64,000 nt of DNA from the NCBI GenBank assembly GCA_030691625.1, contig JAUYDX010000042.1:463-64462 (forward strand), read 5' to 3'. Both the position numbers and the translations under genes were made by a program. The notes below the pieces were generated by a model, which was not told the DNA's origin, did not search any database, and was given only the letters and a program-made list of their open reading frames with translations. Positions 1 through 24,000 of this stretch are shown here, piece after piece. This stretch comes from Candidatus Omnitrophota bacterium. Lineage in GTDB: Bacteria; Omnitrophota; Gorgyraeia; Gorgyraeales; Gorgyraeaceae. The stretch's first letter is position 1. Each line of letters begins with the position of its first letter.

Positions 1-3000
1 ATCGTAAATGGCGGGACAATGGACGCGTCAGAATACGGGAGCATAGATTCAGACGCCAATAAAAAGGACAGGTCTGCTTTAGCTGACGGCAGGATGTTTT
101 TACAGAGCTCGCTATTATCCCTGCCCAGAAATACTGACGGCAGCGCCCTTGACTGGACCAGGTCAGGCGCGCATGCCATGATAGCAAGGCAGACCCTGAC
201 TGTACCTGGCCAGGACCACACTCACACCAGGGTCTGGACAGCCATATTTGACACTGAAGGAAATCTTGTAGCTCTTATTTCTATTGACCTGGATGAGAAT
301 GAAAGGCCTATAAATCCAGGTCCTGTGATGAGCGATGGTTCAGGAAGGATAAGGCTCACAAGGATAACCCAGGGAAATACCACTTACACAGCCATCTGGA
401 GCGCAGACGGCAAGACGCTTCTTGCGGTTTACGCAGTGACAAGGTCTGGAAGCGGCTGGTCTAGCGCCACAGTTACAGATACGCCTCCTCCTGGGAGCCC
501 TTTAAGCGTGGGCCAATACAACCTGGAGAACACAATAACACCAGAGGCTGTTTCTCCAAATGCCTTATTATCCCTGCCAAGCGGGGTTCCGGCGTCTGCC
601 TGGGATCGAGTGAACGGCAATAGCCGCATAATAAGGGCTACGCAGCAGTTTGTAAAAGACGGCATCACGCTCACGCGTGAATGGACAGCTGTGCTTGATG
701 AATTTGGGAATGTAATAGCGCTCTTTTTTGCCGATTATACTGATTATAAAGATCCTGATCCGGCTAAGAAGAAGCTTGTTAACTCCGGCTCACAGTTCAA
801 TATAGGCGGGGCAATGGGCAAGACCCAGAGGGCTATAGTGACCAAGGATGGCAAGACCATATTTATTACAGGCATATTTGACAGTTCAAATAAGCTCATA
901 GCAGTGCTCTGCGTTACCATAGGGCAGAATGGCAGTATTAGTGGCGCAAAGCTTGAATCCGCTGCTACGCTTGGCATAAGAGATCTGCAGGATATGAAGA
1001 ATCTTAGCGATGAAGCTAAGGGTGAATTAGCCAGGTGGCTTGGCGTAGATTCTGCCAGCTTAAATAACCTTAGATGGACCAGCATGTCCAAGCCCACAGG
1101 GCCTGAAGGGTTTGATCTTACCGGAATGAGTGAGGAAAATAAAAGCAAAATACCTGAGTCAGGAGGCAATGCCTATAAAAATAAAATTGTAATAGTCAGC
1201 AATGACGGCATGACATGGTATGCCTTGTACGATGAAAATGGGAATCTCAAAAACCTGATTAAAGTTAATTCAGATAAGAGCGTTGAGGTCCAGAGCGGGC
1301 TCACAGGATTTGATTTTAGCGATATAGATATGGCTACATGGAATATACTACTTGATTGCCTTGAGAATCCAGGGGCGCATAAAAATGAGATATTATCTTT
1401 ATCGTTAGAAAATGGCAAGCGCCAGGACATGGGAGACAAGTGGAGGCAATGGACATTTGTATTTAATGACAAAGGCGAGCTTACAGCAGTGACTTATATA
1501 GATATTGATAAAACAAGCGGTAAGACTATTGGATACAATATCCAGCGCAGGACAGCCACAGAGTATAAAAACCATCCTGGTTATTACAATATAAGCATCA
1601 CTACAAGAGGCATGCAGATCTTCAGGGACGCGCATGACAATGTCATCCATATAATCAGGGAATACAGCGAGGCCTCAGAGACATGGACGCATATAGACAA
1701 AAATGATAACGGCATAGTGGATGAAGGCGATGAGATGAAGAAAAATGTGTCTTCCAGCAGGTATCAAAAAGACACATTCATGTTCTGGGATTATACCAGG
1801 GATTCTGATCCAAATAAAGAAGGCATGCAGGCTTCTCTTGGCAGATATACCACTATTGAGCAGAGCACGAGTTTTGATGACTGGTGGGACGGGGTGAATA
1901 TAAAGGATTTGAAAAATGCTGATGAAAGCCCTGTTAATTTTGGGCCTGAGGTGCGAGATGGGGAACGCACAGGTATACAAAAACTTTCAAGCGGAAATGT
2001 CCGAGTATGGACAGCTGTATATGAGAACGGGGTGCTCAAAAGCTTATCTTATAAAGAATATAAAAATTTTACAGATTTAGAACACAGAGGAGAACAGGTA
2101 GGGGATGAGGCCAAGGACCTGCACGAATGGGTGCATAAGAGAGAATCCAATTCATATTATAAGGAGAGGCATATTACGCTCGGCGCTGATGGCAAAGCCA
2201 CAGGTTATAATTCAGTAGTGGAAAGCAAGAGCTGGATAAAATGGGACGCGTATAGGAGCTCAAATACACAGGCAGGCAATGAGATACAGGGAAGTTCGAA
2301 CAGCAAAGACCAGACCCCGTGGTATAGAAGGGAATTAACTGTAACATTTAGCAACGGGGATCCTACAAGCACTGTATTGCACGAATTCGGGCTTAAGTAT
2401 GACAAAGAACATCCAAGCGGGTTTTATTACATAAGGCATGTGGAGGATGACAAGGCTAAGGTAAATACCGGATCTAAAAATTATTACATAGTAAGCCCTG
2501 TGGCTAATGAACATGACCATAAGGCAGGAAGCTGGTATTATTATAATCCTGAAGCCAAAGAGGGCGAAGATCCCTGGTTAGGGCTAATAACTTTTACAAA
2601 TGGCAAGGCAGATGGGACATCTATACCTGAACCAGGGATAACCAAAAGGCCCAGCTTGCCATCTGACGAAGATTATAGTTTAGATAATGATGATAAAGGT
2701 AATAAAGACTGGCGGAAGAAAAACATGTCAATGGGCGCCAATAACCGAATTCCCGGGCCCTCTGTGGAAGCCCTGAGAAATGCGCCTGATACAGCATTGC
2801 CGTCAGGTTTTTACGACAGGCCGCAGGATGGAGAAGCTGGTTCAGGAGAAGAATTTGACTATACAGACTGGAAATATGACAAGGAAACAGGCCAGCTCTG
2901 GATGCCTGTTACACGCCAGATTATTGAGTATAAGCTCAGCGGCTCAGGCGAGAATGCGAAACGCATAGGCGAAACCAGGAAGACCTATGAGTATATACCT

Positions 3001-6000
3001 GGATACGGCTGGTTCTATGTGTCAAAAGAGGTGACTACATACCTTACCTGGAAAACAGTCAATACGGGCAGGACATATTCAGACGGAACGCCTGTAACAA
3101 ACGAGATGGTGACAAGCTCTGTCACAGACTTCTACGATGTTGTGGGAGGGCTTGAGATACTCACATCCAGGACAAAGACAGAGGTCATATTTGAGGGAAC
3201 AGGGCCTGACAAAAAGATATCTTACACGCAGGTTACTTATTATACCTGGATAGGCGGATCTTTTATTGAATCAGGCATGACAAGGACATACCAGGAATAC
3301 GATGAGCTTGGAGAGTACCGCAAAAAAATAGATACATTTGAAATAATCCCTGGTTCTGACCCATTGCTTATAAATACCCAGTTTGTAAAGGTGGCTCTGG
3401 AAGACATAAATCAGGATGGGAGGCTCGAATCTGTAACTACTGCCAGGACATTTGAGTTTGGCATAGAAACAGGGACGCAAAAGACATGGAATGAGATAGC
3501 TGTAATAAACGGGGAGCTTAGAAGGCTTACCAATGCGCTTAATTATGAGATACCGGGAAGCGACCTAGCCTCTACATTGTCTCTTACCTACAGGACAGTA
3601 GACCCTGAAAAAGGCCCTGTAACAGTCACTAATATTTATGATGTCCTGGGCTCGACTATACCTATATTTAATCTGCCTTATTTAGGCATACCAAGCTCTG
3701 TCATACACAGCTATAAGGCGCCTAATACGCCTGCCAATATAGCAGCTGGCCAGGCTCCTGTGGTGACAATAGTAAATAATTACATACAAATAACCCGCGA
3801 TCTTATTTTATTAGAGAACATGCAGAGGATATACAACATGGCTGTGCAGATAGCAGGCGGAGGCACCAGGTTCGGCCAGGTAGTGGAAAATTACATAGAC
3901 ATAAATTCCAATAATATCCTGGATAGCGATGATTTCCTCGAATACAAGACCTTCACATATTGGGATAAAGTCAAGAACAGGAAAGGCGAGGATGTGCCCG
4001 GTCAGGTTATAGAAACTATAATAGATGTAGCTGGTAAGGAGTTTATAGAGTCAGTAAAACATGTGTATAAAGAGCCGGGCACAATAGGCGGCAAGCCTGT
4101 AATCTTTACAATCACTGATTATTTTGAATCAGGCGTAAAGCTTTCCACGCAGGTATCCTGGAAGATCATTGAAACAATTCAGGACCCCAGATATCCCAAT
4201 GACCCTGCCAGGACTATTCAGAGGCTTGTTACAATAACAGAATTTTATGAATTAGAAACCAAGATTGCCACACAGAGGTCATGGAAAGAGGAGCAGGAAG
4301 TAAAGGTAACCATTAATGGCAGAGAACTTGTCATTAAGACAATGGTGACGATTACAGAGACAGAGGAATTCGATATCCTGACAGCCATACAAAAGGCGTA
4401 TAAATACGCTGAAAACGGGAAGCTCATCCAGGTCATTGAAAATTACGACCCTGTATTCAGCGAAGATGACCCTGTTTCCATCCAGAAAATATTTTATGAC
4501 AAGCGTATAATTTCAGATGATACAGAAAAGTTTGTAAAGGTTATTGAGACATACGAATTCGGCATAAAATCCCTTACCCAGTATATCTACTATGACGAGA
4601 AAGACACTACGCACGGAAGGCTAAAGGTCCAGGTGATTGAGAATAGATTAGAGATTGGCAGTGAAAACATTGTCCAGTCAATACAGTATGTTTACAGGTT
4701 TGAGGAGACAGTTGTCACAGACCTTGCTACAGGCGGGGAAGGCAAAAAACTGGTAAGCGTCATAGAGACCTATGAAGGCGCAGGCAAGGAATATTTCCTG
4801 ACCCAGGTCCAGTATGATTACAGCGTTAAAGGCAGGGATTCTGAAGATACCAGGGATGTTGTTAAAAGGGTCAGTATATATCTTGACCCTGTTTTAAAAG
4901 AGGGCAATGAATACAGCCTTATACCCATATCCCTGCAGGCCACGTGGAAGGAAAGGAGCGCTAAGGATCCGACCAAGATACTCACGTTTACAGACTTCTA
5001 TGAGATGTTAGAAGGCGGGAAACTTTTTAGCTTAAGCCGCCAGATATCTTCCAAGGCCAAGGAAAAGATAAATGGCATAGATACGCTTGTGACAATAACT
5101 GACATCTATGAATCAGGGGTAAAGACAGCCACACAGAAGACATGGAAGGAAACAAGGGATATAACCATAAAACAGGACGGCAAAGATATTATCGTAAAGG
5201 CCCTCCAGACAGTGACTGAAACAAGGGAATTTGACATAGAGATGCTTACCTCTATCCAGAAGTCATTCAGGTATATAGAGGAAGGAAAGCTCATCCAGCT
5301 CATTGAAAACTTTGACCCTGTGTTCAGCTCTACTGAAGCGATTTCCATCCAGAAGATATATTATGAGGAGCGCGAGATAGCTGATAAGACAAATAGGATT
5401 GTAAAGGTCATTGAGACATACGAATTCGGCATAAAAGACCCCACAGCTGTCCAGTATATTTATTTTGAAGAAAAAGACACCACTCACGGACGGCGCAGGG
5501 TCCAGGTAGTTGAGAATAGATTCATGGGTATTGTGCAGTCAATCCAGCATATTTACAAGCTGGTAGAGAAGGACCTGATAGTTGACCTTGCGCTAAAGAC
5601 AAAAGGCGATAAGCTCGTGACTGTCATAGAGACCCTGGAAGGCGCAGGAAGCGAGTTCTTCCTGACTCAGGTCCAGTGGGATTACTCAATCAATGGCAAG
5701 GATTCCAATAATAAGGATGTCATTAAGAGGGTCAGCTTATACTTTGAGCCTGGGCTTGACGAATATATCTCCATGCAGGTTACATGGAGAGAACAGGGGA
5801 GAAGAGGAGACAGGGTAGCTGAAACTGATGTGGCTTTGACCATAACAGAGACTTACGAGTTTGACACTAAAGTCTCTACTCAAGTTTCCTGGAAGGAAAA
5901 ATCTGCGCGCGTAATAGGCAACCGCATTGTGCCTACGCTGTTTACTATCACAGAGTTTTATGAGCTGGGCATAGTTGATGAGGCGCACAAGATCACTGTC

Positions 6001-9000
6001 CAGGCATCCTGGAGGCAGAAAGAGACAATAAACGGCAAAGAAACAGTCGCCAGTTATATTGATACCAGGGAATTCGGCATATTCACTTCTGGCCAGAAAA
6101 CCTGGAAAGAGGTCATAAACCTGACAGATGCAAGCAAAAATCCTTATAAGAGGATACAGACTGTAATAGAGACGCGGGAATTTGACATACTTACTTCAAC
6201 GCAGAAGATATATTATGATAATATCGAGACAGCTTATGGCAATAGATTGGCGAAAGTTGTTGATACCTATGAGTTAGGCCTAAAGGACCCGACCTCGACC
6301 CAGTATATCTATTATATCAGGAATGAAAATGTCTCTGGCTCTCCAACTACATTGATCCAGGTGATTGAAAACAGGATACGTATCGGCAGCGACAGCTTTA
6401 CTCAGTCTATCCAGTATGTGTATCATAAAAAAGAAAACGTGCCCCTGGATTCTGCTAATCCTGGCAGTCTTACCTCAAGGCTGGTCACTGTAATAAAGAC
6501 ATACGAAGGCGATTTCAGCCAGGGCGTTGATGAAAAAGGCCTGCTTAAAGGAGCGATTTTAACCCTTACCCAGTTTGATTACACTATTAAAGGCAGGGAT
6601 TCCAGCAATACAAGAGACGTTCTTAAAAAGGTCAGCCTGTATTTTGAACCAGGTATCAGCGAATTTGTTTCCATGCAGGTTACATGGAGAGAAAAAGGCC
6701 AGAGAGGCGGGAACGATGTTGTCCTTACAATAGCCAAGAATTACGAATTAGGAATTAAAGACCCTATTTCCACGCAGATTACATGGAAAGAGCCTGGCAA
6801 AAAGAATAATGTACCCACTTTACTTACAATCACAGAAACCTTTGAGCCGGGGATTGACCAGTATGTATCAAAACAGATTTCCTGGAAAGAAAAAGGCGTT
6901 AAGAAATTGGGCAATGTAAATACCGAGGTCCTGATTACCACCACTGAATACTATGAGATAGGCTTTAGTGATGCAATTTCTACCCAGAAAACCTGGAGAT
7001 ACACTGACTCTAATCTGACAAACCCGATTACAAATACCAGGTTTGGGAAAAATCTTCTTGTAACAGTAATTGAGAATTACGAACTTGGCACTGTAGGCGC
7101 GATCTCAACACAGTATGTTGTTAAAGATGGTAAATATACCTATATAGTTACATACGAACTCGGCATGGGAGATCAATGGACATCAGTTCAGAGGATCTCC
7201 AAAGAATTTAAGGATAATAAATTTGTCACTACCACCGACTACTTTGAGCCGGGCATATCTGACCCAGTCGCAACCCAGAAGACCTGGAAGGAGGTAAGAA
7301 CAGATGTCATTAACCCACTTACAGGAAAAGCCTTTGGAACTAAAAAGATTGTAACAGTGACCGAGAACTATGAATTAGGCATTGATAAGGCAGTCTCCAC
7401 CCAGAGAGTCTTTAAGGATGGCTTATTTACTTATGTAGCTACCTATGAAACAATCGCGGGCCTGGCAGAAGGCCAGTGGTCAAGCGTGCAGAAGATCTTC
7501 AGGCAGTATGACAAGACAAAAGACAAGATAGTGACCACTACGGAATATTATGAATTCGGAATAGTAGGCGCAGCTGTCTCCACCCAGAAAACGTGGAAAG
7601 ACATAGCGACTAAGAATGTAAAACCGGATGGCGCTAGCATCCTGGGCGGCATGGACTTCACAGGCAAGCTCGTCACAATCACCGAGAACTATGAATTAGG
7701 CATTGATAAACCTCTTATAACCCAGTATGTGGTAAAAGCTCTTCAAGGCAATGTCTTTAATACCTATATAATTACATACGAACTTGGCATCAGCGACAAG
7801 CAGTGGACAGGCATCCAGAGGATCTCCAGGGCATTTGAAGACAGGCAAACTAAAGGAAAGGTCCTTGTCACCACAACCGATTACTTTGAGCCAGGCATAT
7901 CTGACCCAGTAGCCACTCAGAAGACATGGAAGATGGTTGCAGAAAAAAGCACCGCAGATAAACTTAACGGCATTGAATTAAAAGGCAAGCTCGCCACAGT
8001 CACTGAAAACTATGAATTAGGAATCACTGAACCTCTTACAACCCAGTACACAGTAAGAGCCATCCAGGGAGGCATCCTTAATACCTATATAGCCACGTAT
8101 GAAACAGGCCTGGGAGACCAGTGGAGTTCCATACAGAGAATAACAAGAGACTATGACACTAAACTTAACAGGCTCGTCACCAAAACAGAATATTTTGAAC
8201 CGGGCATATCTGATCCAGTAACAACACAGGAGACTTGGAAGAGCGTAGCTGTCAAAGGCACACTGCTTCCTATGGGCGGAGACCTAACAGGCAAGCTCGT
8301 TACAATCACTAAAAACTACGAGCTTGGAATACAAGAGGCTGTATCCACCCAGTACGTAGTCAAGGCGCTTCAGGGAGATGTATTTAATACCTATATAGCC
8401 ACATATGAATTAGGCCTTGGGGAACAGTGGTCTTCCATACAAAGGATATCAAGGGCATTCACAGGCGGCAAAATAGTCACCACCACAGATTACTTTGAGC
8501 CGGGCATATCTGACCCAGTCGCAACCCAGAAGACATGGAAGATGGTGGCAAGCGAAAGCACTTCAGAAAAGCTTAACGGCATTGAATTAAAAGGCAAGCT
8601 CGCCACAGTCACTGAGAACTATGAATTAGGAATTGCCGAACCTATTACAACCCAGTACACAGTAAAGGCATTCCAGGATAATCTCATAACCACCTATATA
8701 GCCACGTATGAAATAGGCCTTGGAGACCAGTGGACATCAATACAGAAGATAACCAGAGACTATGACACTAAGCTTAATAGAATTGTCACCACCACAAAAT
8801 ACTTTGAGCCAGGCATAGAAGGCTATATAACCAGACAAGAAGCCTGGAAGAGTGTAGCTGTACAAGGCACAGTTCTTCCAATGGCTGGAGACCTCTCCGG
8901 CAAACTTGTAACAGTCACAAGGAACTTTGAGCGCGGCATAGAAGAGGCTGTATCTACCCAGTATGCGGTAAAGGCATACCAGGGAGGAGTCCTTAATACC

Positions 9001-12000
9001 TATATATCAACATATGAATTAGGCCTTGGAGACCAGTGGTCAACCATCCAGAAGATCTCAAGGGAATTCAAGGACAATAAGATAGTTACTACCACTACCT
9101 ATATAGAGCTTGACACTGTAACAAGCATCCAGGAATCCTGGAAGGAAGTAAATAAAGGAAGGATAGAGACCATAACAGACACCTATGAATTCGGCATAGG
9201 CTTTGACACCCGTAATGACCCGGCCAAGAGAATCACCTACGCCCTCACTCACCAGGTATCCTACAGGGAGATCACGGACAACAGGATCAGTACCACCATA
9301 GATACCTATGAATTAGGGGCTGATTTTATAAGCTCTACCCAGAAAATCTCCAAGCGCGATACAGGCACAAGGATCGAGACCGTAACCAACACATATGACC
9401 TCGGCAAGATCGAAGACTACGCCTGCACCCAGCAGATTGCCTGGAAACAATTAGAATCCGGCAAGCTCGTCACAATAATCGAGAACTACGAACTCGGCAA
9501 TATCTTCACCTTTAGCCAGAAGATCACTAAAGAGTATGTGAACGGAAGAGCTGAAACCACCACCACCTATTATGACATGGCGCATTACGAGGCCGGCAAG
9601 ATGAACGAGGCAATCGCCATTAAGCAGGTCTCCTGGAGGGAAAAAGACGGCGACAAGATAAAGACCGTAATAAAGACCATAGAGCTTGACACTGTGACAA
9701 GTATCCAGGAATCCTGGAAGGAAGTAAATAAAGGAAGGATTGAGACCATAACAGATACCTGGGACATGGGCTTAAAAGGCGAAAAATCCGCCCTCACTCA
9801 CCAGGTCTCTTTTAGGGAAATCACCGGTAATAGGATCACTACAACAATAGATACCTATGAATTAGGCGCTAGCTTTATAAGCTATACCCAGAAGATCTCC
9901 AAGCGCGATACAGGTAAAGCAATCGAGACTGTTACCAATACCTATGAACTCGGCAAGATCGAAGACTACGCATGCACCCAGCAGGTTGCCTGGAAACAGC
10001 TTGAAGGCACAAAGCTCGTTACAATAATCGAGAACTACGAACTCGGCAATATATTCACATCAAGCCAGAAGATAACAAAGGAATACGTAAACGGAAGGGC
10101 AGAGACCACTACCACCTATTATGACATGGCTCATTACGAGGCCGGCAAGATGAACGAGGCAATCGCCATAAAACAGGTATCCTGGAGGGAAAAAGACGGC
10201 TCAAGGATAAAGACCACCACCAAGACCATAGAGCTTGACACTGTAACAAGCATCCAGGAATCCTGGAAGGAAGTAAATAAAGGAAGGGTTGAGACCATAA
10301 CAGATACCTGGGACATGGGCTTAAAAGGCGAAAAATCCGCCCTCACTCACCAGGCCTCTTTCAGGGAAATCACCGGTAATAGAATCACTACCACAATAGA
10401 TACCTATGAATTAGGCTCCAGCTTTATAAGCTATACCCAGAAGATCTCCAAGCGCGATACAGGTAAAGCAATCGAGACCGTAACCAACACCTATGAACTC
10501 GGCAAGATCGAAGACTACGCATGCACCCAGCAGGTTGCCTGGAAACAGCTTGAAGGCACAAAACTCGTTACTTTTGTTGATACGTATGAACTTGGCAAGC
10601 ACCTGACACAGACTCAGAAGATATGGAAAGAAGCAGTAATAGACGCAACTGGAAAAGTGACAAGGGTTGACACAATCACGCTGTATTATGAGTTGGGATA
10701 CGAAAACGCATTTAATGTTGTTGAGCAAAGGTCATGGAAAGAGGTCTCAGATAGCGGCAGAATAGTTACTGTCATAGAGACAAAGGAAGCAGGGATAGTT
10801 ACAGGGATCCAGAAGTCATGGAAAGAGGAAAGGGATAATAACGGCCAGAAGGTAATAGCCACCATAACTGATTATTATGAATTAGGGTCTGACATCGCTT
10901 ACACAAGGCAGATTGCGTGGAAGGAGATAAGGGAAAGCAAATCATTAAGTGAATATACAGATTTAGGAAAGAAGATAGTGAGCGTTACTGAAACCTATGA
11001 AGGCATGCCAGGCTCCAGGGTCCTGATATCTACGCAATATTCCTTCAGGCATGCGCAAGATAATAAGATATATACCTATACATTGACAGAGGAATTTTCC
11101 GCCAGAATCCTTACCTCTATCCAGATATCCTACAAATATGATGACGCTAAAAAAGGCCTTGTAACTGTTATTGAAAACTACGAGCCGGGTATAAAGGATG
11201 CCAATGGGCTTATAAAGATTTCCTGGCAGGAGATATATTATGGCGCGCGGAAGACAATAGAGGGAGATAAGAGGGTAAAGGTAGTTGAGAACTATGAATT
11301 CGGCATCCAGGGACCAGCGCTTACGCAATATATCTACTACAGGGATTATAAGGATGCCCCAGGCGACGGCATAAGGATCCAGGTGGTAGAGAATATCATA
11401 AAGGTAGGGACTGGTGATTTTATCCAGTCAGTCCAGTATATCTACCGCAAATATGAGGATGTGCCTGATCTATCTGGCGGATTAAAGAATAAGCTCGTCA
11501 GTATAATAGAGACGTATGAAGGCGATCTTAGCCAGGGTTTTGACGCATCCAAAGGCCAGTTCAATGCCGCATTTCTCACCCAGACCCAGAAGGACTACAC
11601 TGTATTCCACGATGATAAGCTGAAGAGGATAAGCCTTTATTTTGAGCCAGGGCTTGAGCAGTATATATCCATGCAGGCCTTCTGGAGGGAACTTGGCAAG
11701 GATACCGCGGGAAGGGATACTGTCCACACTGTGGCAGATTCTTATGAATCTGGTATCCAGGATCCTATCAGCACCCAAAGGAGCTGGAAGGAACTGCTGG
11801 ATACAGAGGCATTAAGCGACTCTTATGTAAAGTTAGGCCAGAAGATCGTGAACATAACCCAGACTTATGAAGGCGCGCGAGGGTCAATGTCTCTAGTATC
11901 AACCCAGTATTCATTTAAAGACGTAAAGGATGATGTAGTTTATACCTATATATTAAATAAGGAGTTTGATGCCCAAATCCTTACATCAATCCAGAGGACG

Positions 12001-15000
12001 AATAAATACATAGACAAAGAAGGCCATCTTGTAACTGTTATTGAAAACTACGAGCCGGGTATAAAGGATGCCAATGGGCTTATACGCATTTCCTGGCAGG
12101 AGATATATTACGACAGGGTAGAAACAGTGGACGGCCAGAAGACCGTAAAGGTAATAGAGAATAATGAATACGGGATAAAAGGTTATACCTTAAAGCAGTT
12201 CATCTATTACGCTGAAAAAGACACAACAGGCGGCAAGAGGATAGTCCAGGTAACAGAGAATTACGAATATGGCATGCCAGTAGACAAGCCTCTCTCCATA
12301 ACATACAGTTACCACGATGTAAGGACCATAGCTAACGGGTCTGAAAAGCTTGTCCAGGTAACTGAAAATAAGATACTGGCAGGCGACGCTTATTTAATTG
12401 AATCAATAAATTATTCTTACCGCAAATCAGAAGATATATCCTTTGACACCAAGGCAGGACAGAAGACGAGGATGGTGACCGTAATAGAGACATATGAAGG
12501 GTTGTTTACCAGTGACGTAAATATCGCGACCAGTGAGCGTATGGCAGGGGCTGTGCTTACAGGCGTCCAGTGGGAATATTCCATTGTGGATGAGGGAAAG
12601 CTCAAAAATGTCACAGCGTATTTTGACCCTGGATTATTAGACAAGCCTACTGCGGTCCAGTATAAATATAAGGCAATGGAAGGGGATATCTTAAAGACCA
12701 TAATAGACACATACGAGAGCGGTGTTTATATTTCCCAGCAGAAGATATGGAAGGTAAAAGAAGGGTTTAAGGATGTCCTTACAGGCGAAGATCTGTCAAT
12801 GCGGTTAGTTACCTATATTGAGAATTATGAGCTGGGTACCCTTGTAAATACCCAGGAGACATGGAAGCAGATAGAGACCATAGGCGGCCAGCTTACCAGT
12901 GTAACATACACTGTTACGTATGAATTAGGGGATAAGGCAATGCCGCCTCTAATTGACAGGTCTTATAAGGTTAAAGACGCTAAATTGGGCATAGTGACTC
13001 TTATTGAGGCATATGAATATGGGATTAAAGACACCCCTTCATCTATTAAAAGGACATACTATGTTTCTATGGACGCGACTAACCTTACTGTAGAAGACAA
13101 TAAAGCTAGGACCGTAAAGGTCATAGAGACATATGAATATGATTTAGCGAAAAACATTGACCCGTCCAAGGCCAATAAGCTTTCCTCATTGCAGTATATC
13201 TACTGGGATGAGAGAGCCACGCATGACAGCGGGAATACAAAGCGCAGGGTCAAGGTAGTGGAGAATTTTATAAATATAGGCGAGCCCAAACCTATCAGGG
13301 ACAATACCCAGTATATCTTTAATAAGACTGAAAAGGTTGCGGGCGGGGAAGACAGGGTAATCCAGGTCATAGAAAATTATGTCCACTATGGAGCTGGCAA
13401 TGCTGACAAGTTTTTAGAGGCAATCCAGTATGTGCATAAGGAAAATATAAACGGCGTATTGGTTACTGTGATCCGCAATATGTTCAGCGCAGGAAGCGGG
13501 GTTTATCTTGATAATATCCAGCATATTTACAATATAAAGGAAGGGAATAGGCTGGTCCAGGTCACTGAAACCTATTTCTCAACAGGCAAGGTGGATTTTG
13601 ACAGCGTTACAAAAGACCAGACATGGACACAAGGCGAAGAGGTCCTGGATTATACCCAGTATATGCATAAAGAACTTATGGAAAAGCCGGGGGTTAAGGA
13701 TCCTGTTGTAGTCACTGTCATAAGGAATGTATATAAGGCCGGCGATACATTATTTGTCGAGAGCATCCAGCATATATACAAGGCTGAAATTACATCCAAA
13801 CTTGACGGGAAGCCCCATCTTACTACAGTTTTGGAAAATTATGTGGTTACAGGCGAAGAGACCATGCTTGATACCATACAATATATCTATAAGAAACTGG
13901 ACGGTGACACAATAAAGCAGGTTATTGAAAACTATGTAAGGATAGCTGGAAAAGATTACTTAGAGAATTACCAGTTTAGCTATTATGACAAGGTCCAGGT
14001 CAATACAGGCGGTGAAAGAGTTGCAAAGGTAATTGAGACGCATTTAATAATAGGCGATAAGGACTGGCTTGATACAAAGCAGTTCATCTATAACGACGTA
14101 AGAGGGGGCAAAGGCGTACAGGTTGTTGAAAATTACACCTATTACGGGGATATAAATAAGCCGGCTGTATTTTTAGCATCTGTCCAGTATATGTCCAACA
14201 CTGTTGAGGAGATTAACGGCGCAAAGCGGGCAGTGAGGGTGATAGATAGCTATGATGTTATTGGCTCGCAGGAACCTGGCAAATCTACATATATCCAGAC
14301 TACAAGGGATAAGGTTTACGCTGAATATAAGGACGCCGACAATGACGGGCGTAAGGAATTAGTAAGGACAACCATTTCTTATGACAGGATAGGATTGAAC
14401 GGACAGGATGCGTTTATAGCGTCTACAATGCGCGATACCTGGAAATTGATTATTAATGGAGAGGTGATTGAAAGGAGCGTGAATTACCAGTATGTGGTAG
14501 CGTCTACAGCAGGATGGGTAACCGGGACATCAGGCGACATGTCTAATAACATTAATAATAGCGCTGTACAGTTCTGTTACTCAATGGATGACAGGAAAAA
14601 AGAGATCCGCAATATAGACGGTAAAGCTACTCTCGCGCTTATAACCAGGTCTTATGAATATCTCGGCGCCTGGTACGATACGGATAACGCAGGAGGCGCA
14701 AGCCAGCGCATACTTATGGGAGAGCAGGTGTCTTACAGGGCGTTATTTACAGACGTAGATGGCAAAACCAGGGTGGCAACAATCATACTTTCATATGAAT
14801 TCTACAGCGATAAGGATAATGTAGACCTTAAACTTTTAACAGGCAGGAAGATCACATACGCGGAGTGGGACGCGGCTGAAAACAAATTAAAACAGGTGGA
14901 GATAACAGATGAGTTTGTGGATTTTTCATACCTTGGCATGGACCTGACAGGGTTAGACCCAAAGACAGTAAGGGAAATCCTGGATCTTGCGGCTATAGAA

Positions 15001-18000
15001 GCAGGCATTATGAATGATATAAACATTTTATTAAAGAGTATGGGAGAAGAGGCCTTGAGTTTTGACAGCCACTATACAGGCTATCTGCCTCAATCCAGAA
15101 AAGAAATAATGTCCTTATATGAAAATGGCTATAAGACAGGGGTTGAGGTCCGCGACATAAACATAGCAGAGTTCAATAAAGGCAATTACTATTACACCAG
15201 CCAGAAGATCAGGGATTTAAGGAATGCAAACGGAGTAAAGATAGGGTATTCCACAGAATACTTTAATAAATGGGGCGTAGAAACAGGCGTTCCTGAGTAT
15301 ACATCCAATACCGTGTTCCAGAGGGATGAAAATGGATATTTAACTGGCGAGGCAGTGCTTACGCATAAAGGCGGGGAATTTAAATACGAACATTCTACAT
15401 ACACCAGGGATGAATATGGCAGGATAAACGGCATGGATAAGCTGACAGTGGCAGGGCCTTTGTCAGAGAAGGATACGCCCGCGAGCGGCTATGACCACAG
15501 GAAGGTCAGCGTCTTGTTCGAGAAGATACATTATGTAAGAGACTCTATTACGCATATGAGGATAGGTGCTATCAGTGAAAAATGGCTAGACGGGAACTGG
15601 TATAAGCACAATAAGGATTCAAATGATTATATTGAACCCGACAGGGTGGCGATTAATGTTATTACAGACATCCAGGAAAAGTTTATTGATGGGAATTGGG
15701 TGGTAGTGAAGAACGCTGTTAATTTTGAATTTTCAAGCAGGGCACCTCCAGCTGCGATTCCGCATACAAAGGCCTCGCCTGACAATGAAGAGCCGCCAGA
15801 GCCGGAACTTCCTGAACAGCCTGAAATCACGCCAGTTTCCCTTGATGAGCTTTACAGTAAAGCGTTTGAAACGCTCCAGCCATTCCTTAATAACCCTGAA
15901 GAATTGAATGTCGGGTTTAAGATAGGCCAGTACACTGTCCTGAACTGGAGTTCTACAAAGATAACCATAGATAAGTTGACCGGCAGGGTGTATTCGGAAG
16001 AGACGGATGTCTATACTAATGACCTTGGCAGGCAGTGGTCCAGAAAAGACTATACCTATGAATTGTCGCAAAAGCAGAAAGATAAGGGCCTGACGCCTGC
16101 AGATTTTAAAGGCGAGGCTACAGGCTGGATCCAGTCTGGAAAGCGCGATGGCCTTTGCGTGAGCTTTAAGTTGGACGAAAACGGTTATACAGGGCTAAGG
16201 GTAGATCTCTATTATGACCCCATTACAGGATCGGTAACCGAACAGGATAGCTATGGCGGATACGGCAATTCAAAAGAAGGGACATGGGTTACCTATAAGA
16301 CAGAGTATTCTGACGGCCGTTCCAGTGACGGTACCGATGATGTAGAGGAATTTTTAAGGAATTCCGGATATTTAATAGCAGGTTCGGAGATAGAGACCAC
16401 GACCCAGAGTTACGAGGACACAGAGGACCAGGGAGGATATGCCAGAAACCAGACGCGCATCGAGTACCAGGTAAAGGTCAAGCAGGGCGTAAGTATCGGA
16501 GACGCGCTGGACCAGAAGAACCTGACCTATGATATTCTTGGCAGGATTACGTCAGGCGTATTCGCGACCTGGAACGACAAGAAAAGTAGATATGATATCA
16601 CCACTAAGACCAATATGCGGTATGACGCTTATGGCCGTCCCTTAAGCTATACTGAATATTCCACAATTGACGGCATCACATCCACAACAAATATCAAAGA
16701 TATCACTTATGACGCCTTTGGCCAGGAAATAAGCCGCTATATATCCGGAGAGTCAATAGACAGTAAGAATAAAAAAACCACCTTTAAAGGCACTATCACC
16801 AGCACCAATACCTACGACCCAGTAGGGCTTCTCAAGCAGAAGACCACAAGCGAGAACATCAAGTATGAACAGAAAAAATCCGGGTGGGGGCTGTTTGCTT
16901 TCTTTGGAGCAATATTCGCAGCAATATTTGCGGTCTTACTTGCGCCTTTCACAGGCGGTATGAGTTTATTGCTGCTTAAGGTCCTTTCTATAATGCTAAC
17001 AGTATCATTCTATGGTATGGCTACTATTGCTATAGCTAAAATTTGTGGCTGGGGCGGTTATGCAGTAGGCAGTATTTCAGAAAAGATTACTCAGTATAGC
17101 TATATTTTCAGTAAACTCGGCCGCACAGATACAGAAAAAGTCCTTAAGGATGTTCAGAAGGCCATATGGAATTTCTGGAGGGTTGCTGAGACTGTAAATA
17201 TTATAGCAGTGGGCATAATTGCTTCGATTATAAGTTTTGGAGTTTTAGGCCCTGCTATTGCAGGAGCTATGACTGCTCAAACTGCTGCTACAGCCGCGGT
17301 AGCAACTACAACTGCAGCAATATCTGGAAGCGTAGCTGCTTTAACTGCTGGTACAGTTGCGGGAGGCGTTGCCGCAGCCATGGCCGCGGGTTTCTCTGCT
17401 ATTGCAGCTGCCGCAGTAGCGCATTTAGCAGTTGTCACTTTTATCGCAGGCATGATTGCCACTGGCATAGCCGCAGTTGTATCAGGCGTTATTACAGCAT
17501 TCTTTGAGTTTATGCAAAATGATTTTAAGTCTTGGGCATTCGGATTAAGGGATTTCCTCATGTCTTTTGCAAGCGGCGTATTCAGCGCGGTATTTGAAGG
17601 AATAAGCCAGGCGCTTCAGTCGAGCTGGAGCGCAGGCGGCAAGGTAGCAAAGGTAATACATCAGATGAGAGATGCGTTCAGAACAGTAAGTCATTTAATG
17701 CCAGGCGCGCTTACAGGATTTACAATAGCGCTTCTTTATACCACTGTGAAATGGATAGCTACAGGTAAATTCGAATTTGATAATTTAGCGTATGGGATTA
17801 TGGCAGCAGGACTTTTTACAGATATACTGAGATGGGCGTTTAATATAGGGATGGGCCCAACAAAGTATGGCCCATTCAAAGAAGGCCTTTCTGTAAAAAG
17901 CGATTTTATCTATGACAAGATCTGGAAAAACCTGTCAGGCGCATTGAATAAAGTCTGGGAAGGATTCAAAAAGATCCTCAGCATTAGCCAGGAATATACT

Positions 18001-21000
18001 ATAGGCAATACCTATGACCAGCAGTTTGGCTTTGAGCTTGGCTTGAGCAGTTTTAAGCCTACAAAGACCGGATTTTTTGCAGGAATTAAAGAAAGGATGG
18101 CTTATTTAGCAAATTCTCCGTTCGTAGCGCACGATGCATTTGTTTTTGTCAGAAAGATAGTGCGCGGCTTTATAGAAATATTTGCAGCCAGTAAGCTCTC
18201 TGAGGCGCAGAGGGCAAAGCAGTCTAAAGAGTCGTCCGGCTCAAGGAGCACTGCGCCATGGATAGCTCTCTTAGGGTTTATTTCAATTGATGTGACCAAG
18301 CTTGATGTTGCAAGGAATATAGATAAGAATGGAAAGCCTATAGCGGATATTAAAAAAACCATAGAGATGGCGCCAGGCTTAAAAGTGCCTATCCTTAACA
18401 GCCTTACATACAGAAGCATGGATTTATTCGGAAGCCTGGGAAGACTGGTTATCCAGGTAGTAATGGCAAATGTGGCGATCCATAACCAGGAGAAGACAGC
18501 AGACGGGAGAGAAACCGGCAAGGAGAAGATCTGGGTTACCCTGATGAGGAATATAGTGGTAAATTCCTTTAATGTCATTGCCAGGATCGTGAATGTGGAA
18601 AGGACTGTCAGGGACAGGCTTGCCCAGGAAAACGGCTGGGTAGAAGGGGTTGATGGCTGTGAAATGGATATGGATAAAGAAGGCAACTGGGTGGCTACAA
18701 AGGACGGCCAGATGATCAAGTTTAACCCCACAGGCATGCTTATTATAGGAAGAGATATGTTTGGAATAGACAAGGATGGAAATCAGGTCCACATAGTAGA
18801 GAAGTTTATAAAAGCCGCTGAAATGAAAGGAAGGGAAGATAATTTTGAAGGATGTTACGGCGTGATAGTAAGAACTAAAAATGGGGATATTACTTATACC
18901 CCGATTGTAAAATTAGAAAATAAATTCCAATATCTTTCTGAGATTACACAAGAAGAGTATGAGAATAACCTGGCGTCATTCCATGTCACAAGCTATGCAG
19001 CCATGAATTTTGACGGGCTTTTAGGTCCTGGCACAAAGGATAAGATTGAAATTGAAGAGGCATTTGAGCTTATGCCTTCCGCTGATTTCAGCAATGAACC
19101 GGTCTATGTGTTTATAGTCATTGATAAAGATGGGAAAATAACAAAGCGCATGGAAGTATTTGACATGAGACTCAGAAGGCTTATGGAATATGAGTTTAAA
19201 TTAGACGCATTGCCGATGCTTACTTTCTATGGCAACTGGATGCCTTATGTAGGTAAAAATCTTACTACAGGTAAATTCGAGATTTTATATGAACGCGACA
19301 GCTTTACGGTTTTTGGCAATAATTCCGCGATTAAAGCCCATAGAAATGCTGACGGGACTATAACAAAGATTCTTTATGCGCTGGAAGGCGGAAAATTTAT
19401 TCAAAACGGTAATCCAGAAACCTTAAGGCCTGATTATGCGATAACGCTTGAGCTGCCAAAGGTGTTCATAGGAACACCTTTCTTTCCAAAAAGCGAAACC
19501 GGGGAAGAAAAGGAAACTAAGCAGCCTGCCGGAAAATTGTTGCAGCTTCCAGGGAAGTTTTTTGGCGAGGAAGGCAGCGTGAAAGCTGTTATAACAGATG
19601 AATCCGCAGCTATGATTAAATTCAGATACGAGATTGGCGGAAAGATATATGAAGGTGTCATAACAGCTATAGAGGAAGGGAAGGGAGGGATTGAGCGTTC
19701 AAGGATAGAAGAAATAACCAGTATTGACATGGCAAAGATAGAGATCATAACAGATACAGGCAAAGCCATATTTTATAAAATCGGAGACCAGACTTTCAGT
19801 GAAAACGAATATAAGATATTTAAGGATTCCGCAGTTAAAATGAACCTGGATTTCAAGCTGTGCCTGGAGCTTGTAAAGCTATTTAACATTGATCCGAAGG
19901 ATTTATTTAAAGATCAAGGGGTAAACGCAGATAAAAAGATTATCGGAGCGCTAAAGGCGTTATTAGAAATTTCAGCAGGCAGGGCGCCGCCTCTAGCAGT
20001 AGAGAAGATCTCAGCTTTTATAGATAAAATAAATAAAGGAGAAATAAAAGTAAAATACCTTACAGATTCCCCTGAAAATTCAGGCGTCCTCGCCAGATTT
20101 AACCCGGAAACAAATGAACTCTCCATAGCAGGGCTAAATACCTCAGATAAAGACATGGCAGTCCTGTTCGGCCTTGTCATATTCCACGAACTCACAGGCC
20201 ATCTGGAATTTACAAAAGCCACAGGCTTAAAGGCTGTAGATACGCTAAGCGTGTTTATTAACGAAATCGCGGCCTGGATGAGTACACTTGACATATTCGG
20301 CATAGATAACCTTAGCGGTATATTAAAGGAAAAGATAAAGGACGCGAAAGGCATTGCGCTAGTCATAAAGGCGCAGTTTGAGGCATTGATAGACGCTGTA
20401 AAATCCGGGACATTGCCAAAGAAAATATTTGAGGCATATGGTTTTGACAAGGCGCTTGGAAAGTCCTTTGAGAATATCAAATTTGAAGTCCTGGCAAAGC
20501 TAAAAGAGATATCCCCTCTTACTAAGGGCACTATATTCGAATCAGCTGTTAGTAAGCTTATAGGTATGCTGTCGCTGTCTCTGGCGCCTGTTGTAATACC
20601 CAGGCAGTCTATTGATTCAAGAGGCAGGGTAGTTGAAACGACCTACATGATATCCGGCGGCGCGCCAGGCACCATAGAATCCATCTCTGTCAGGTATTCC
20701 TACCGCGGGGATACCAATGTGCTTGATTACATGGAAGGCAGGCTCCCCATCGCAGACGGCATGTTCGCAGACAGGTCTATAAAGGTATATTGTGACAGCC
20801 ATGGCATGCTTGACTGGAAAACCGCGATATTCACAGATACAAATGAAAAAGCGGAATTGATATTAGCGACAAACACAGAAGGGAAAAAGTTTATATTTGA
20901 CACAATTTCAGGCAATTTGTTCGGGTTAGATATTATAGATACCTTAAAAGGAGAAAACCGTTTATCCGCGAGTTTCTCTATTAAAGACATTGACACCAAA

Positions 21001-24000
21001 AATGGTAAAGATGCATTTTATAAGGCAATAATAGGACATTATGCAAATATAGCCGAAGAGCTCAGAAAAGACAGTTATTATAAAGGACCGGTTATAACAG
21101 AGGAAAATTGGGGTAGCCAGTTCAGAGCTGTAAATATCGCAGCTGCAATGAAATCCATAGCCGAACTTAGAGCCAAGGCTTACCATGAAACTGCCGACGC
21201 CTTACTCGTAAAAGCAGAGACCTTAGTACAAAAAGGCCAGTGGAGAGAAGCGCTCGGCGATATATTCACAGCCCAGGCAAATGTCGTTGCTGAAAACTGG
21301 GCAAAGACAACAACTAAAGATGGAAAGACCATATGGCTAGCAAATAACGGCAATATTGAAACTATCGGCAAGCTTTATATAACAACCCAGATAGCCGAGC
21401 TTAGAGCCAAGGCTTACCATGAAACTGCCGACGCCTTACTCGTAAAAGCAGAGGCCTTAGTAGCAAAAGGCCAGTGGAGAGAAGCGCTCGGAGATATATT
21501 CACAGCCCAGACAAATGTCGTTGCTGAAAACTGGGCAAAGAAAGAGGCGAAGTGGGATTCTTACAAAGGCTCTATACTCGACAAAGTAGAGCAGGCAGGC
21601 TTGGACTACGGAAAGTATCTGTTAGGCATAGCAAATAAAGAGATAACCGAAGCAAAAGGAAAAGGTATCACTATAGAAAGCTTTGATCCTTCAAAGATTA
21701 CACTCACAAAAGACAACTGGAGAGAAATGCTCAGCACTATCTCTACAGGCCTGACAAATATATCTGTAGAAATGTGGGCAAAGACTACAAATACCAAAGA
21801 TGGGAAGATGACAATATGGACAACTAATAACGGGAATACTGAAACTATCGGCGCTCTTTACGCAACCCATCTCATAGCTGATATCAGGAGCAAGCCTAAC
21901 CATGAGAGCGCAAATACCCTTCTTGCAAAGGCAGAAGGCCTGATAGCTAAAGGCCAGTGGAGAGAAGCGCTCGGCGATATATATGAGGCGCAAGCAAAGA
22001 TATTTAATGTCCGAGTTGTAAACGGCAGGGAGTTTGCATTTGTGAAAGAGAATGGAGTGGAGAATCTGGGAAATGGCAATATGAAAGTTACTCTTATGGA
22101 CGGAACAGAGTATTTTGTTGATAAGGGCGGAAATATCTACAGGAGAGTAACGCGTTCCAGAGAAGTTGATATAGAAAAGACAATAGCGGAACAGGGTGAA
22201 TTCAAAGATATAAAAGAAGGTAATTCAGTTAAGACAGTGTTTATCTCAGGAGCGCGCGTAACTATAACAAAAAGCGATCCAAGAAACCATGAGCTGGCAT
22301 TTCAGGTAAACCTTCTCAAGGTAGAAACAATCCACGATGGCTTACTAGTATCTATGACAGAAAATGGCATAGATGAAAAAGGCAAGAGTATAAATAAGAG
22401 AGTTAAATATGAAAACGAGGCTATGTATTTTGACGGCAAGTCTTATGTCCTCAGTATAGGCAAATCGAGCGAGGGTTATATAGATTCAATAGGTCAATAT
22501 GAAGCTTCCTCTTCGGGCGAATATAAGCTTATAAATTTTGCCCAGCTGCCAGAAGGAACACACGTTAAACAGGTTAATTACAACTTATTCAAAGAAACAA
22601 AGAGTATGCCAGACCACTTTGACCCTGCTACGCAAAAATGCATAGAGAAAGATGTGATTTTTGTAAGACTTACCTTAACTAATTCTTCCGGCACAGAAAT
22701 AAGCGGGGTTTCTTATGACAGTTACGCATACGCGGATAACGCCGAGTATCATCTAAGCACTTCTATACAGCGTATACGCATGCCCAGCGGAGATCCTACT
22801 ATACCTAATTATGTTACCACAGAAGAAGTTTTAAGCCGCTCGTCCTCATTATACGATGGCTCTGGCGCGCTTATTTATACAGGATCTATAGACAGAGATG
22901 GGAAAATAGAACAGGTTACTGATTTTACCAGCATAGATGGCAGATTGGTGCAGAAAGAGACAGTAAACATAGTGGATAGCAAGGTTCATAAAGGAACATT
23001 CACTTGGGAAAAAGATTGGGACGGTTATAAATCCACAATGGAAATGATAACCGAGGAAAATTTAGGGGATACAAAAAAGACTATTACGGTAAAGGAAATA
23101 ACTTATTATGATAGCACGTTTTCAAATATTCCAGGGACTGGTTCTACTGTATTTACAGATGGCAAAAAAGAATGGGCTGTAGAAGAATCAACTACTAAAT
23201 CCTGGGGCTGGTTTACACCATTTCTATCAGTGGGAACTAAAATAAGATCTGTATACTACAATTGGGTAGCTGGTCAGACAGAGATTGACGATGGCTTTGG
23301 TAATAAGATTCAGGCTTCAGAAACATACCTAGACTATTTAATGGATAATAAATTACAAAGCCTTGCTAATGCAAAACTGTCAGAGGGTTTTCTTAGATAT
23401 ACAAGAGAGGAGATTAATGAAACAAAACCCTGGGTCAGATTAGGGCTTGAGCTAGGTATGTCAGCTACGGTAGGTTTTTTAGATGGCATCACTCTGCCCA
23501 TATCCTTCATCTTAGATCCTATCGGCACAGGAAAAGGTTTTGTGGATATGGTTAAGACATTGAATATTCAGCTGCGCGATGATTTTATCTGGACAGTAGG
23601 GTCTTTTATAGGTTTTGGAAAAGGCATGAAGGCTTTACACATATTACCTGAGTTATTCAAAACAGGAGACGTAGCAAAGTCAGGTGCGCTTGAACTGTTG
23701 AAAAAATCAGGATCTTCAGATGTTGCAATATCAAAGCTTAATTTAGGATTTAGCGCTAAGTTATGGATGAAATATGGCAAATACATAGAATATGCGCCTG
23801 AAGCTGCAGGAAGGTTTATTATGAGCCAGGTTTCTACAGTGGTAGGGATGGGTTTTATGTTTGGCATTTCCTATCTACTGGGTACGGTTTTTGGCTCAAC
23901 AAGCGAATATCTTGGATTAGGGAGAGATTTTGGAGAAGGTTTGGGAGGATTAATAGGGTTCTTTGCGCCAGGCGCTATAATGAAAATAGCAGTGGAAACC

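Follow-up and report, generated by a model that had tools for sequence, protein, structure and literature searches.

What protein architecture is encoded by the more than 10 kb of repetitive sequence that lies near the 5′ end of a 64,000-nucleotide (nt) stretch of Candidatus Omnitrophota DNA (contig JAUYDX010000042.1), hereafter the window? Frame +1 is open through the whole window, with 21,333 codons, 0 stops and no end at either edge, and the window is a fragment of a giant gene of more than 64 kb. A first-pass annotation, made by a model from the letters alone, had described hierarchical β-strand repeats at nt 3700–14300, built on a motif of ~20 amino acids (aa) that belonged to no family it could name. 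The reading that we favour, though with some reserve, is that the region is a long array of a ~24-residue hairpin repeat (at least 92 copies) forming a continuous single-layer antiparallel sheet built like the shells of RHS/YD proteins, that it probably belongs to the β-helix tubule class predicted for Omnitrophota giant proteins in a preprint (West-Roberts et al., bioRxiv 10.1101/2023.11.21.568195), and that it would act as a rigid tube or stalk whose length varies.

The repeat motif is real and far above chance. Searched with one regular expression for each half, aa 1234–4767 contains 23 and 43 matches, where shuffles of this stretch lead one to expect 0.18, and the remainder of the 21,333 aa contains none. 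An iterated hidden Markov model (HMM) finds 88 units of ~24 aa with the consensus (K/R)LVTVIENYExG…STQKxWK. Together with a variant HMM for the tail unit, (R/K)VxQVIENYxxxGxxxxLxxIQYIYK (aa 4415–4733), it places at least 92 units in aa 1145–4733, and degenerate hairpins are discernible up to ~aa 4957. The copy number in all is put at some 90–100. The repeat region as a whole extends over aa ~1145–4957 (nt ~3433–14871; ~3,800 aa, ~11 kb), where the first-pass annotation had placed it but within slightly wider limits. The short unit also stands, at a corrected size: it is one hairpin of ~24 aa rather than ~20 aa, and in the main arrays units are spaced 34–43 aa apart. The composition is strongly polar (E 8.0%, K 8.2%, D 6.0%, T 11.1%), the sequence is not low-complexity, and the turn glycine, aromatic and glutamine sites are conserved by position in the repeat alignments.

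AlphaFold2 was run on two separate segments of the array, with multiple sequence alignments (MSAs) made up of four homologues and non-overlapping paralogous segments. Model 1 (aa 1368–2300, 933 residues) has a predicted local distance difference test score (pLDDT) of 78, a predicted template-modelling score (pTM) of 0.75 and 52 consecutive strands of mean length 13 residues, with no helix. Model 2 (aa 2309–2722, four 102-aa units, 414 residues) has a pLDDT of 83.6, a pTM of 0.75, 24 strands and one 4-residue helix. The five models of each job agree within ~5 pLDDT units. In model 1, 74% of residues are modelled in strands, in line with the β-strand character proposed earlier, and 29 of 54 strand connections are three residues or shorter. 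The motif maps onto this model as a strand A, (K/R)-L-V-T-V-I-E-N-Y-E, that passes through a two-residue xG or xD turn into a strand B ending …S-T-Q-K-x-W-K; the junction to the next unit is either a tight NG, DG or EG turn followed by K/R-L or a short loop. Both models, obtained by the structure prediction that the first-pass annotation had proposed as a check, are uninterrupted all-β antiparallel meanders with one hairpin per unit and without domain boundaries or linkers. On the Kyte-Doolittle scale, the more hydrophobic of the two strand faces averages +0.37 in model 1 and +0.03 in model 2, not above within-strand shuffles, and 17–26% of its residues are charged. That neither face exceeds shuffles in hydrophobicity agrees with a single-layer sheet exposed to solvent on its two sides. 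The array is predicted to be one continuous single-layer antiparallel hairpin sheet with two polar faces. Searched against the PDB with Foldseek, model 1 finds as its top matches the TcB-TcC RHS cocoons (TcdB2-TccC3 and PTC3 TcB-TcC; 4o9x, E 7.8e-8, probability 0.99, and 6h6f_F, probability 0.98). Its remaining PDB matches are DDB1/SF3b propellers (probability 0.2–0.7) and, at low probability, an LptD model and ApoB100; none of its matches has a template-modelling score (TM-score) above 0.18.

No known family accounts for the repeat, as had been suspected from the motif alone. Pfam returned nothing for aa 1–5000 at E ≤ 0.01, and for repeat sub-segments at E ≤ 10 only sub-threshold chance matches (BTB_SANBR, DUF2963, Spo0A_C); NCBIfam at E ≤ 10 gave nothing meaningful and no YD-repeat model. 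PDB sequence and profile searches with two repeat alignments (A1, A2) and with a YD-looking segment downstream of the array gave chance matches only (plexin, lipoate ligase, EMC8), and the A1 profile found no Rhs, Tc or teneurin protein among all PDB sequences. The adhesin repeats that the first-pass annotation had set aside by eye are likewise absent: no Big, cadherin, HYR, PKD, VCBS, SdrD_B or other adhesin-repeat Pfam model matches at E ≤ 10.

This last result bears on the architecture of classical giant adhesins, a stalk of tandem Ig-like or other β-sandwich domains or a parallel β-solenoid, which the first-pass annotation had offered beside an extended fibre. Giant bacterial surface proteins are commonly built from such adhesin domains; the repetitive nature of the region, its abundance of Thr, Val, Ile and Tyr and a period of ~100 aa, close to the size of an Ig-like domain, would suit this architecture. 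Against this stand the null searches with adhesin-repeat models and the form of both models, in which the strands, 52 of them consecutive in model 1, run on as an unbroken meander without domain boundaries or linkers and the alternating hydrophobic face of a sandwich core is absent. Neither a family match nor an autonomous ~90–110-aa sandwich with a hydrophobic core was found, and no Ig-like structure occurs among the Foldseek matches of either model. The antiparallel hairpin connectivity, with its two-residue turns, rules out a parallel solenoid. The extended repetitive β architecture of the earlier proposal holds; its Ig-like and solenoid versions are largely refuted, and we regard them as scarcely credible.

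The hairpins are organised into longer tandem blocks, and the multi-scale hierarchy proposed from the first reading is recovered, with blocks of 102, 183 and ~290 aa at both the protein and the DNA level. The features of the window that bear on the array are as follows (P0005, P0006, P0017, L001 and L002 are related sequences described below).

1..63999, + strand: single stop-free frame (frame 1, 21,333 codons, zero stops).
2863..3432, + strand: entry segment (aa ~955–1144), just N-terminal to the first hairpins; invariant positions shared with P0005, P0006, P0017 and L001; 35–43% identity to P0006, collinear.
3433..4101, + strand: first hairpin units, non-tandem (aa 1145–1367), with units at aa 1145, 1207, 1293 and 1335; 1:1 orthologous with P0006 and L001.
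4102..6924, + strand: three ~290-aa super-repeats (aa 1368–2308) of ~8 hairpins each; lag 283–292 aa, 41–56% identity, DNA period 867–873 nt; source of AlphaFold model 1.
6925..9075, + strand: seven tandem ~102-aa units (aa 2309–3025) of three hairpin subtypes each; lag 97–111 aa, DNA periods 303–321 and 609 nt; partly the source of AlphaFold model 2.
9076..10758, + strand: three tandem 183-aa units (aa 3026–3586) of ~6 hairpins each; lag 183 aa, 77–92% identity, DNA period 549 nt.
10759..12690, + strand: two more ~290-aa super-repeats (aa 3587–4230); lag 288–290 aa, ~52% identity, DNA period 870 nt; paralogous to aa 1368–2308.
12691..14871, + strand: tail of the repeat region (aa 4231–4957), variant units (variant HMM, aa 4415–4733) and then degenerate hairpins; 1:1 orthologous to P0006, collinear with L002.
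14872..16878, + strand: pre-anchor segment (aa 4958–5626) with a short helical insert and YD-looking motifs; collinear with P0006.
16879..17748, + strand: first multi-transmembrane hydrophobic cluster (aa 5627–5916, from hydropathy); the cluster and its KKSGWGLFAF motif are kept in P0006.

Copies in the ~102-aa block are 46–60% identical as protein and up to 76% identical at a double period of 203–208 aa, with a mean column identity of 64% in alignment A2 and a main DNA period of ~306 nt. The two ~290-aa blocks are 40–44% identical to each other, and the 183-aa array is the youngest of the arrays. All block DNA periods are divisible by 3, and DNA copies are 65–94% identical. The ratio of nonsynonymous to synonymous divergence (dN/dS) between paralogous copies is 0.13–0.33 (0.13 for 183-aa copies 1 and 2, 0.28 for the pair at aa 3587–4230), and the copies have therefore been selected as protein. 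The blocks are in-frame duplications that have diverged while purifying selection maintained them as protein. Tandem Repeats Finder called no arrays, because the copies are too diverged or the periods exceed 500 nt; a separate DNA repeat search recovered the block arrays that it missed. An assembly artefact of collapsed or duplicated repeats was considered and rejected, the copies being 65–94% identical rather than identical, all in frame, and with dN/dS well below 1.

Relatives of the repeat are few. A word-indexed search of 5.8 billion clusters returned four homologues at 24–32% identity, and when 1.84 billion representative proteins were searched exhaustively with a HMMER profile, 20 relatives came up, 12 of them at E ≤ 1e-30. 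All 20 are contig-truncated fragments, the longest of 5,176 aa. The taxonomic range of the motif, which the first-pass annotation had proposed to map, is given by their metagenome-assembled genome (MAG) bins: mostly Omnitrophota and Desantisbacteria (several pieces from one bin), with one bin labelled “Planctomycetota” and one “Actinobacteria”. Among GTDB species representatives the repeat occurs in one Omnitrophica MAG only. L001 and L002 belong to Candidatus Omnitrophica bacterium CG22_combo_CG10-13_8_21_14_all_43_16; the 9.3-kb contig of L001 (1–9331) is one unbroken ORF (open reading frame), and L002 continues it. A scan of Joint Genome Institute (JGI) metagenome contigs with the A1 profile found no relatives. 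Neither the entry segment nor the anchor region, used as a query in word-indexed homology searches, returned anything; the search with the anchor region was probably saturated by its Ala/Gly-rich transmembrane segment. By the measure of these searches, the repeat is a very rare, unannotated sequence family, seen so far only in giant-ORF fragments of Omnitrophota-type MAGs.

Comparison with P0006 shows where the length of the region varies. P0006 is 5,176 aa long, fills its whole contig and has a hairpin region of ~1,650 aa. Its aa 1175–2020 align collinearly with aa 452–1376 of the window, and its aa 2700–5100 with aa 4276–6955 at 30–61% identity; the tail is the best-conserved part (44–61% identity to P0006 aa 2700–3346). 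Between these collinear flanks the central array measures ~740 aa in P0006 vs ~2,900 aa in the window. Both flanks are fixed, the central array has grown by blocks of 102, 183 and 290 aa, and in-frame tandem duplication has roughly doubled the length of the repeat region. In each of the five compared sequences the conserved entry segment comes before the first hairpin, and it marks where the repeat region has its fixed N-terminal boundary. On the other side is a membrane anchor, the first in the window, which begins at aa 5627: hydropathy finds no transmembrane-like segment in aa 1–5626, and the repeats lie within this transmembrane-free part, whose length is at least 5,626 aa.

The sequences upstream of the array differ among relatives. 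P0005 and P0017 carry a Peptidase_C39 domain upstream of the repeats, in P0005 immediately before the entry segment; P0017 apparently has two C39-like stretches, and at the corresponding place the window lacks a C39. In both of these distant relatives the hairpins are also preceded by a helical region of W(D/E)(Y/F)L repeats. The parts concerned are aa 1–710 of P0005 and aa 435–568 and ~1000–1590 of P0017. L001 has there ~1,000 aa of a different β-rich repeat, GxDxFGxxYxT, which is present as well in P0006 aa 1–1050 and absent from the windowed part of the gene. Within the hairpin region itself, L001/L002 carry two ~90-aa α-helical insertions that the window and P0006 do not have. The window has a second short motif upstream of its hairpins, W(T/Y)A(I/L)(F/Y)DxxGNLxAL, which occurs at aa 79, 406 and 484 and, in looser form, around aa 228 and 676 (nt ~235–2100); P0006 has one copy only, ‘REWTAIYDDEGNLIAIYY’, and the motif has no family match.

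How might such an array work? In the reading set out at the start, the hairpins would join edge to edge into one continuous sheet rather than separate domains, and this sheet would coil into a rigid tube or stalk. The array would lie outside the cytoplasm, a placement taken solely from the signal peptides stated in the preprint, and would either space the distal N-terminal modules at a set distance from the membrane anchor or form a conduit between the two. In-frame duplication of blocks of 3, 6 or ~8 hairpins would tune the length of the array during evolution. At ~17.5 aa per strand, the region would hold ~215 strands and have an estimated sheet contour of ~100 nm if flat, less if coiled. 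The first-pass annotation had supposed that the repeats could project enzymatic or toxin domains away from the cell. The domains that would qualify, Trypsin_2 and RelA_SpoT, lie downstream of the repeat, past several multi-transmembrane clusters, which speaks against that role; if the repeat projects anything, it would be N-terminal modules.

Several results weigh against this stalk or tube, and they concern its fold, its kinship and its placement. The AlphaFold MSAs are shallow (9 and 12 rows, partly paralogues), and the program may only be propagating a generic hairpin meander. The resemblance of model 1 to RHS shells is local only, with TM-scores of 0.12–0.18, and model 2 has no significant PDB match and no RHS match: its best are VDAC1 (probability 0.93, TM-score 0.25/0.34), LptD (0.72) and, at low probability, DDB1 propellers. 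Against a viral fold library model 2 gave weak matches only, to MORN-repeat proteins (probability 0.06–0.38, TM-score ≤0.24) and propellers. Pfam RHS_repeat (PF05593) has no match in the whole translation at E ≤ 0.01 or in sub-segments at E ≤ 10, the alignments A1 and A2 reach probabilities of only 0.5% and 0.7% with E. coli RhsA in hhalign, and a YD-unit HMM built from RhsA (21 units) has 0 matches in 21,333 aa, the reciprocal search of RhsA with a window-unit HMM giving nothing meaningful. The repeat is probably a sequence-level instance of the β-helix class of West-Roberts et al., likened to it by description and not by sequence, and our two models are without the external helices of those tubules. 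Lastly, the gene's N-terminus lies outside the window, the frame being open at the 5′ edge, and a charge count around the first transmembrane cluster, a crude positive-inside test, is ambiguous as to membrane side.

Some of these points could be taken further, to mean that the meander is an AlphaFold artefact and the region a low-complexity spacer, repetitive and partly disordered or fibril-forming, that lacks a defined tertiary structure. The shallow, partly paralogous MSAs would agree with that, as would the lack of a global PDB match (TM-score ≤0.34) and the different nearest neighbours of the two models. We nevertheless think it quite improbable, given pLDDT values of 78–84 and a pTM of 0.75 over 933 and 414 residues, with five models per job within ~5 pLDDT units. 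The sequence itself is not low-complexity, its turn glycine, aromatic and glutamine positions are conserved, dN/dS between copies is 0.13–0.33, and the pattern is kept in orthologues at 30–60% identity.

The matches of model 2 to VDAC1 and LptD, which are its highest-probability ones, together with the low-probability LptD model and ApoB100 among those of model 1, could alternatively point to a giant β-barrel or belt embedded in or associated with lipid, such as a pore, a translocon or a lipid-binding sheet, and the region does come directly before a membrane anchor. An outer-membrane-type barrel has a lipid-facing hydrophobic strand face; here the more hydrophobic face (+0.37/+0.03 Kyte-Doolittle) is no more so than shuffles and is 17–26% charged, in a region whose overall composition is highly polar. 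With TM-scores of at most 0.34, and with ~3,800 aa of variable length that misfit a defined barrel, a membrane-embedded array is very improbable.

A closer competitor is a true, extremely divergent RHS/YD cocoon, a closed shell that encapsulates a toxin or enzyme cargo for delivery as in Tc toxins and the Rhs effectors of type VI secretion systems (T6SS). The top Foldseek matches of model 1 are such shells, and the unit is built like a YD unit, with G-(K/R)-L leading into a strand, a Gly turn and a second strand whose end carries an aromatic and a charged residue. A likeness to RHS proteins was noted by the preprint too, and the ORF has toxin-type domains outside the array, namely RelA_SpoT and a weak match to DUF4329. 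Closely downstream of the array, at aa ~5100–5620 and just before the first membrane anchor, are the YD-looking motifs MRYDAYGRPL, ITYDAFGQEI and NTYDPVGLL (MRYDAYGRPLSYTEY, ITYDAFGQEISRY). These motifs of aa 4958–5626 are recognised by none of Pfam, NCBIfam, PDB sequence search and the RhsA-derived YD HMM. The sole DPxGL-like string, YDPVGLL (aa ~5605), is unconserved, its P0006 equivalent being ‘YYSTGEL’, and RHS core models of Pfam and NCBIfam have no match in aa 4801–5700. The autoprotease motif PxxxxDPxGL that, together with a toxin, characterises the RHS family was thus not found, and a multi-transmembrane cluster follows the region instead of a C-terminal toxin. The null searches with RHS_repeat, NCBIfam YD models and RhsA count against a cocoon as well, and at the level of sequence the region does not appear to belong to the RHS/YD family. 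Model 2 has no RHS match, and the modelled strands, on average ~9–13 residues, are too long for the ~21-aa YD period of RhsA. A closed shell should, moreover, not tolerate a central change from ~740 to ~2,900 aa; this variable length and the transmembrane anchor that follows argue most strongly against a closed cocoon, which we consider unlikely.

Compared with a closed shell, a stalk or tube of adjustable length remains our preferred reading, and the rest of the giant protein gives it a setting. Nine transmembrane-like clusters (aa 5627–5916, 7946–7998, 11034–11241, 11559–12101, 15906–16139, 16723–16834, 17494–17670, 18822–19076 and 20605–20793) partition the protein into alternating soluble blocks. 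The first of them includes a 105-residue uncharged stretch rich in Ala, Gly, Thr and Val. Only two Pfam domains lie above cut-off in the whole 21,333-aa translation, both downstream of the hairpin repeats with several multi-transmembrane clusters in between. One is a Trypsin_2 serine-peptidase domain (E 1e-11, aa ~11344–11489, nt ~34030–34470) flanked by two transmembrane clusters, and the other a RelA_SpoT nucleotidyltransferase domain (E 1.2e-16, aa ~20208–20335, nt ~60620–61005) close to the 3′ edge of the window. At ~500 aa beyond RelA_SpoT there is a match to DUF4329 that stays below threshold (E 0.007, nt ~62460–62730). Domains of the RelA_SpoT and DUF4329 types are found in toxins as well as in housekeeping proteins of other organisms.

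The protein contains other repeats. A helical-looking tandem repeat at aa 7027–7335 (nt ~21079–22005) has a unit of 78–80 aa and a double period of 159–161 aa (48–94% identity), with the sequence pattern ‘AELRAKAYHETADALLVKAE..KGQWREALGDIFTAQ.NVVAENWAK’. Self-BLAST finds more internal repeats at aa ~14000–15000 (nt ~42000–45000), aa ~19000–19600 (nt ~57000–58800) and aa 1–242. A non-standard genetic code behind the long ORF was considered and rejected: the other five frames of the window contain 662–1943 stops each, and orthologous fragments are also open across entire contigs.

What the preprint saw only as a predicted shape is here given a concrete motif, a family definable by an HMM and clear boundaries (entry, array, anchor), and fragmented metagenomes can now be screened for such regions, in a group of bacteria whose giant genes are mostly unannotated. 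The central growth from ~740 to ~2,900 aa under purifying selection shows how a giant protein lengthens and suggests that array length is itself functional. A bolder version, which we put forward tentatively and hold to be possible but doubtful, is that the new family of hairpin modules builds a hollow single-chain antiparallel β-tubule of adjustable length, tens of nanometres long and unlike any solved structure, a surface stalk or conduit by which Omnitrophota-type bacteria of ultra-small size and predatory or episymbiotic habit would bridge to host or prey cells, with RHS/YD proteins as distant relatives or a case of convergence. If the tube geometry is true, the array would represent a new class of long single-chain β architecture, of interest as a scaffold for design and for the study of cell–cell contact among ultra-small bacteria.

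Among known systems, the nearest in description is the predicted hollow, “tubule-like” single-chain antiparallel β helix of ~1,500 aa in Omnitrophota giant proteins (West-Roberts et al., bioRxiv 10.1101/2023.11.21.568195, Fig. 5). Those tubules bear external paired helices or paired β elements, were judged novel but reminiscent of RHS proteins, and were given no sequence motif or family name; full-length genes of that study have C39 peptidase domains near N-terminal signal peptides (bioRxiv 10.1101/2023.11.21.568195). The window shares with them a giant, multi-transmembrane, mostly unannotated ORF with relatives in Omnitrophota MAGs, a continuous all-antiparallel β region and a likeness to RHS noted independently in both. 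The C39 peptidase upstream in two relatives (P0005, P0017), the ~1,650 aa of P0006 vs ~1,500 aa in the preprint and the helical insertions within the repeat region of the orthologue L001/L002 agree with that description as well, and membership in the β-helix class is therefore likely. The window differs in a region of ~3,800 aa, ~2.5 times longer, and in having none of the SecA, HEAT and dockerin domains that define the two gene types of the preprint. Later papers on giant genes do not describe the hairpin repeat, and a 2026 survey defers structure prediction of the unannotated giant-gene fraction to future work.

With the RHS/YD shells (TcB-TcC of Tc toxins 4o9x and 6h6f, T6SS Rhs effectors and teneurins), which include the best PDB matches of model 1, the array shares Gly-turn hairpins, strands that end in an aromatic and a charged residue, and a continuous antiparallel sheet with polar faces. 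It differs from them in a sequence or profile similarity below detection, in a 24-aa unit spaced 34–43 aa apart with longer strands vs the ~21-aa YD period of RhsA, in a far greater and variable length with neither RHS core autoprotease nor C-terminal toxin, and in the low TM-scores of model 1 and the missing RHS match of model 2. MORN repeats offer a further parallel, a 23-aa β-hairpin repeat with one hairpin per repeat that forms an elongated single-layer antiparallel sheet. Their consensus is entirely unlike the window unit, Pfam MORN models have no match, and the Foldseek matches of model 2 to MORN proteins are weak, as given above; MORN arrays comprise ~6–20 units, vs 90 or more in the window. 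The fold class is one that the literature had anticipated; what is new is the sequence family, which is distinct, very rare and without annotation.

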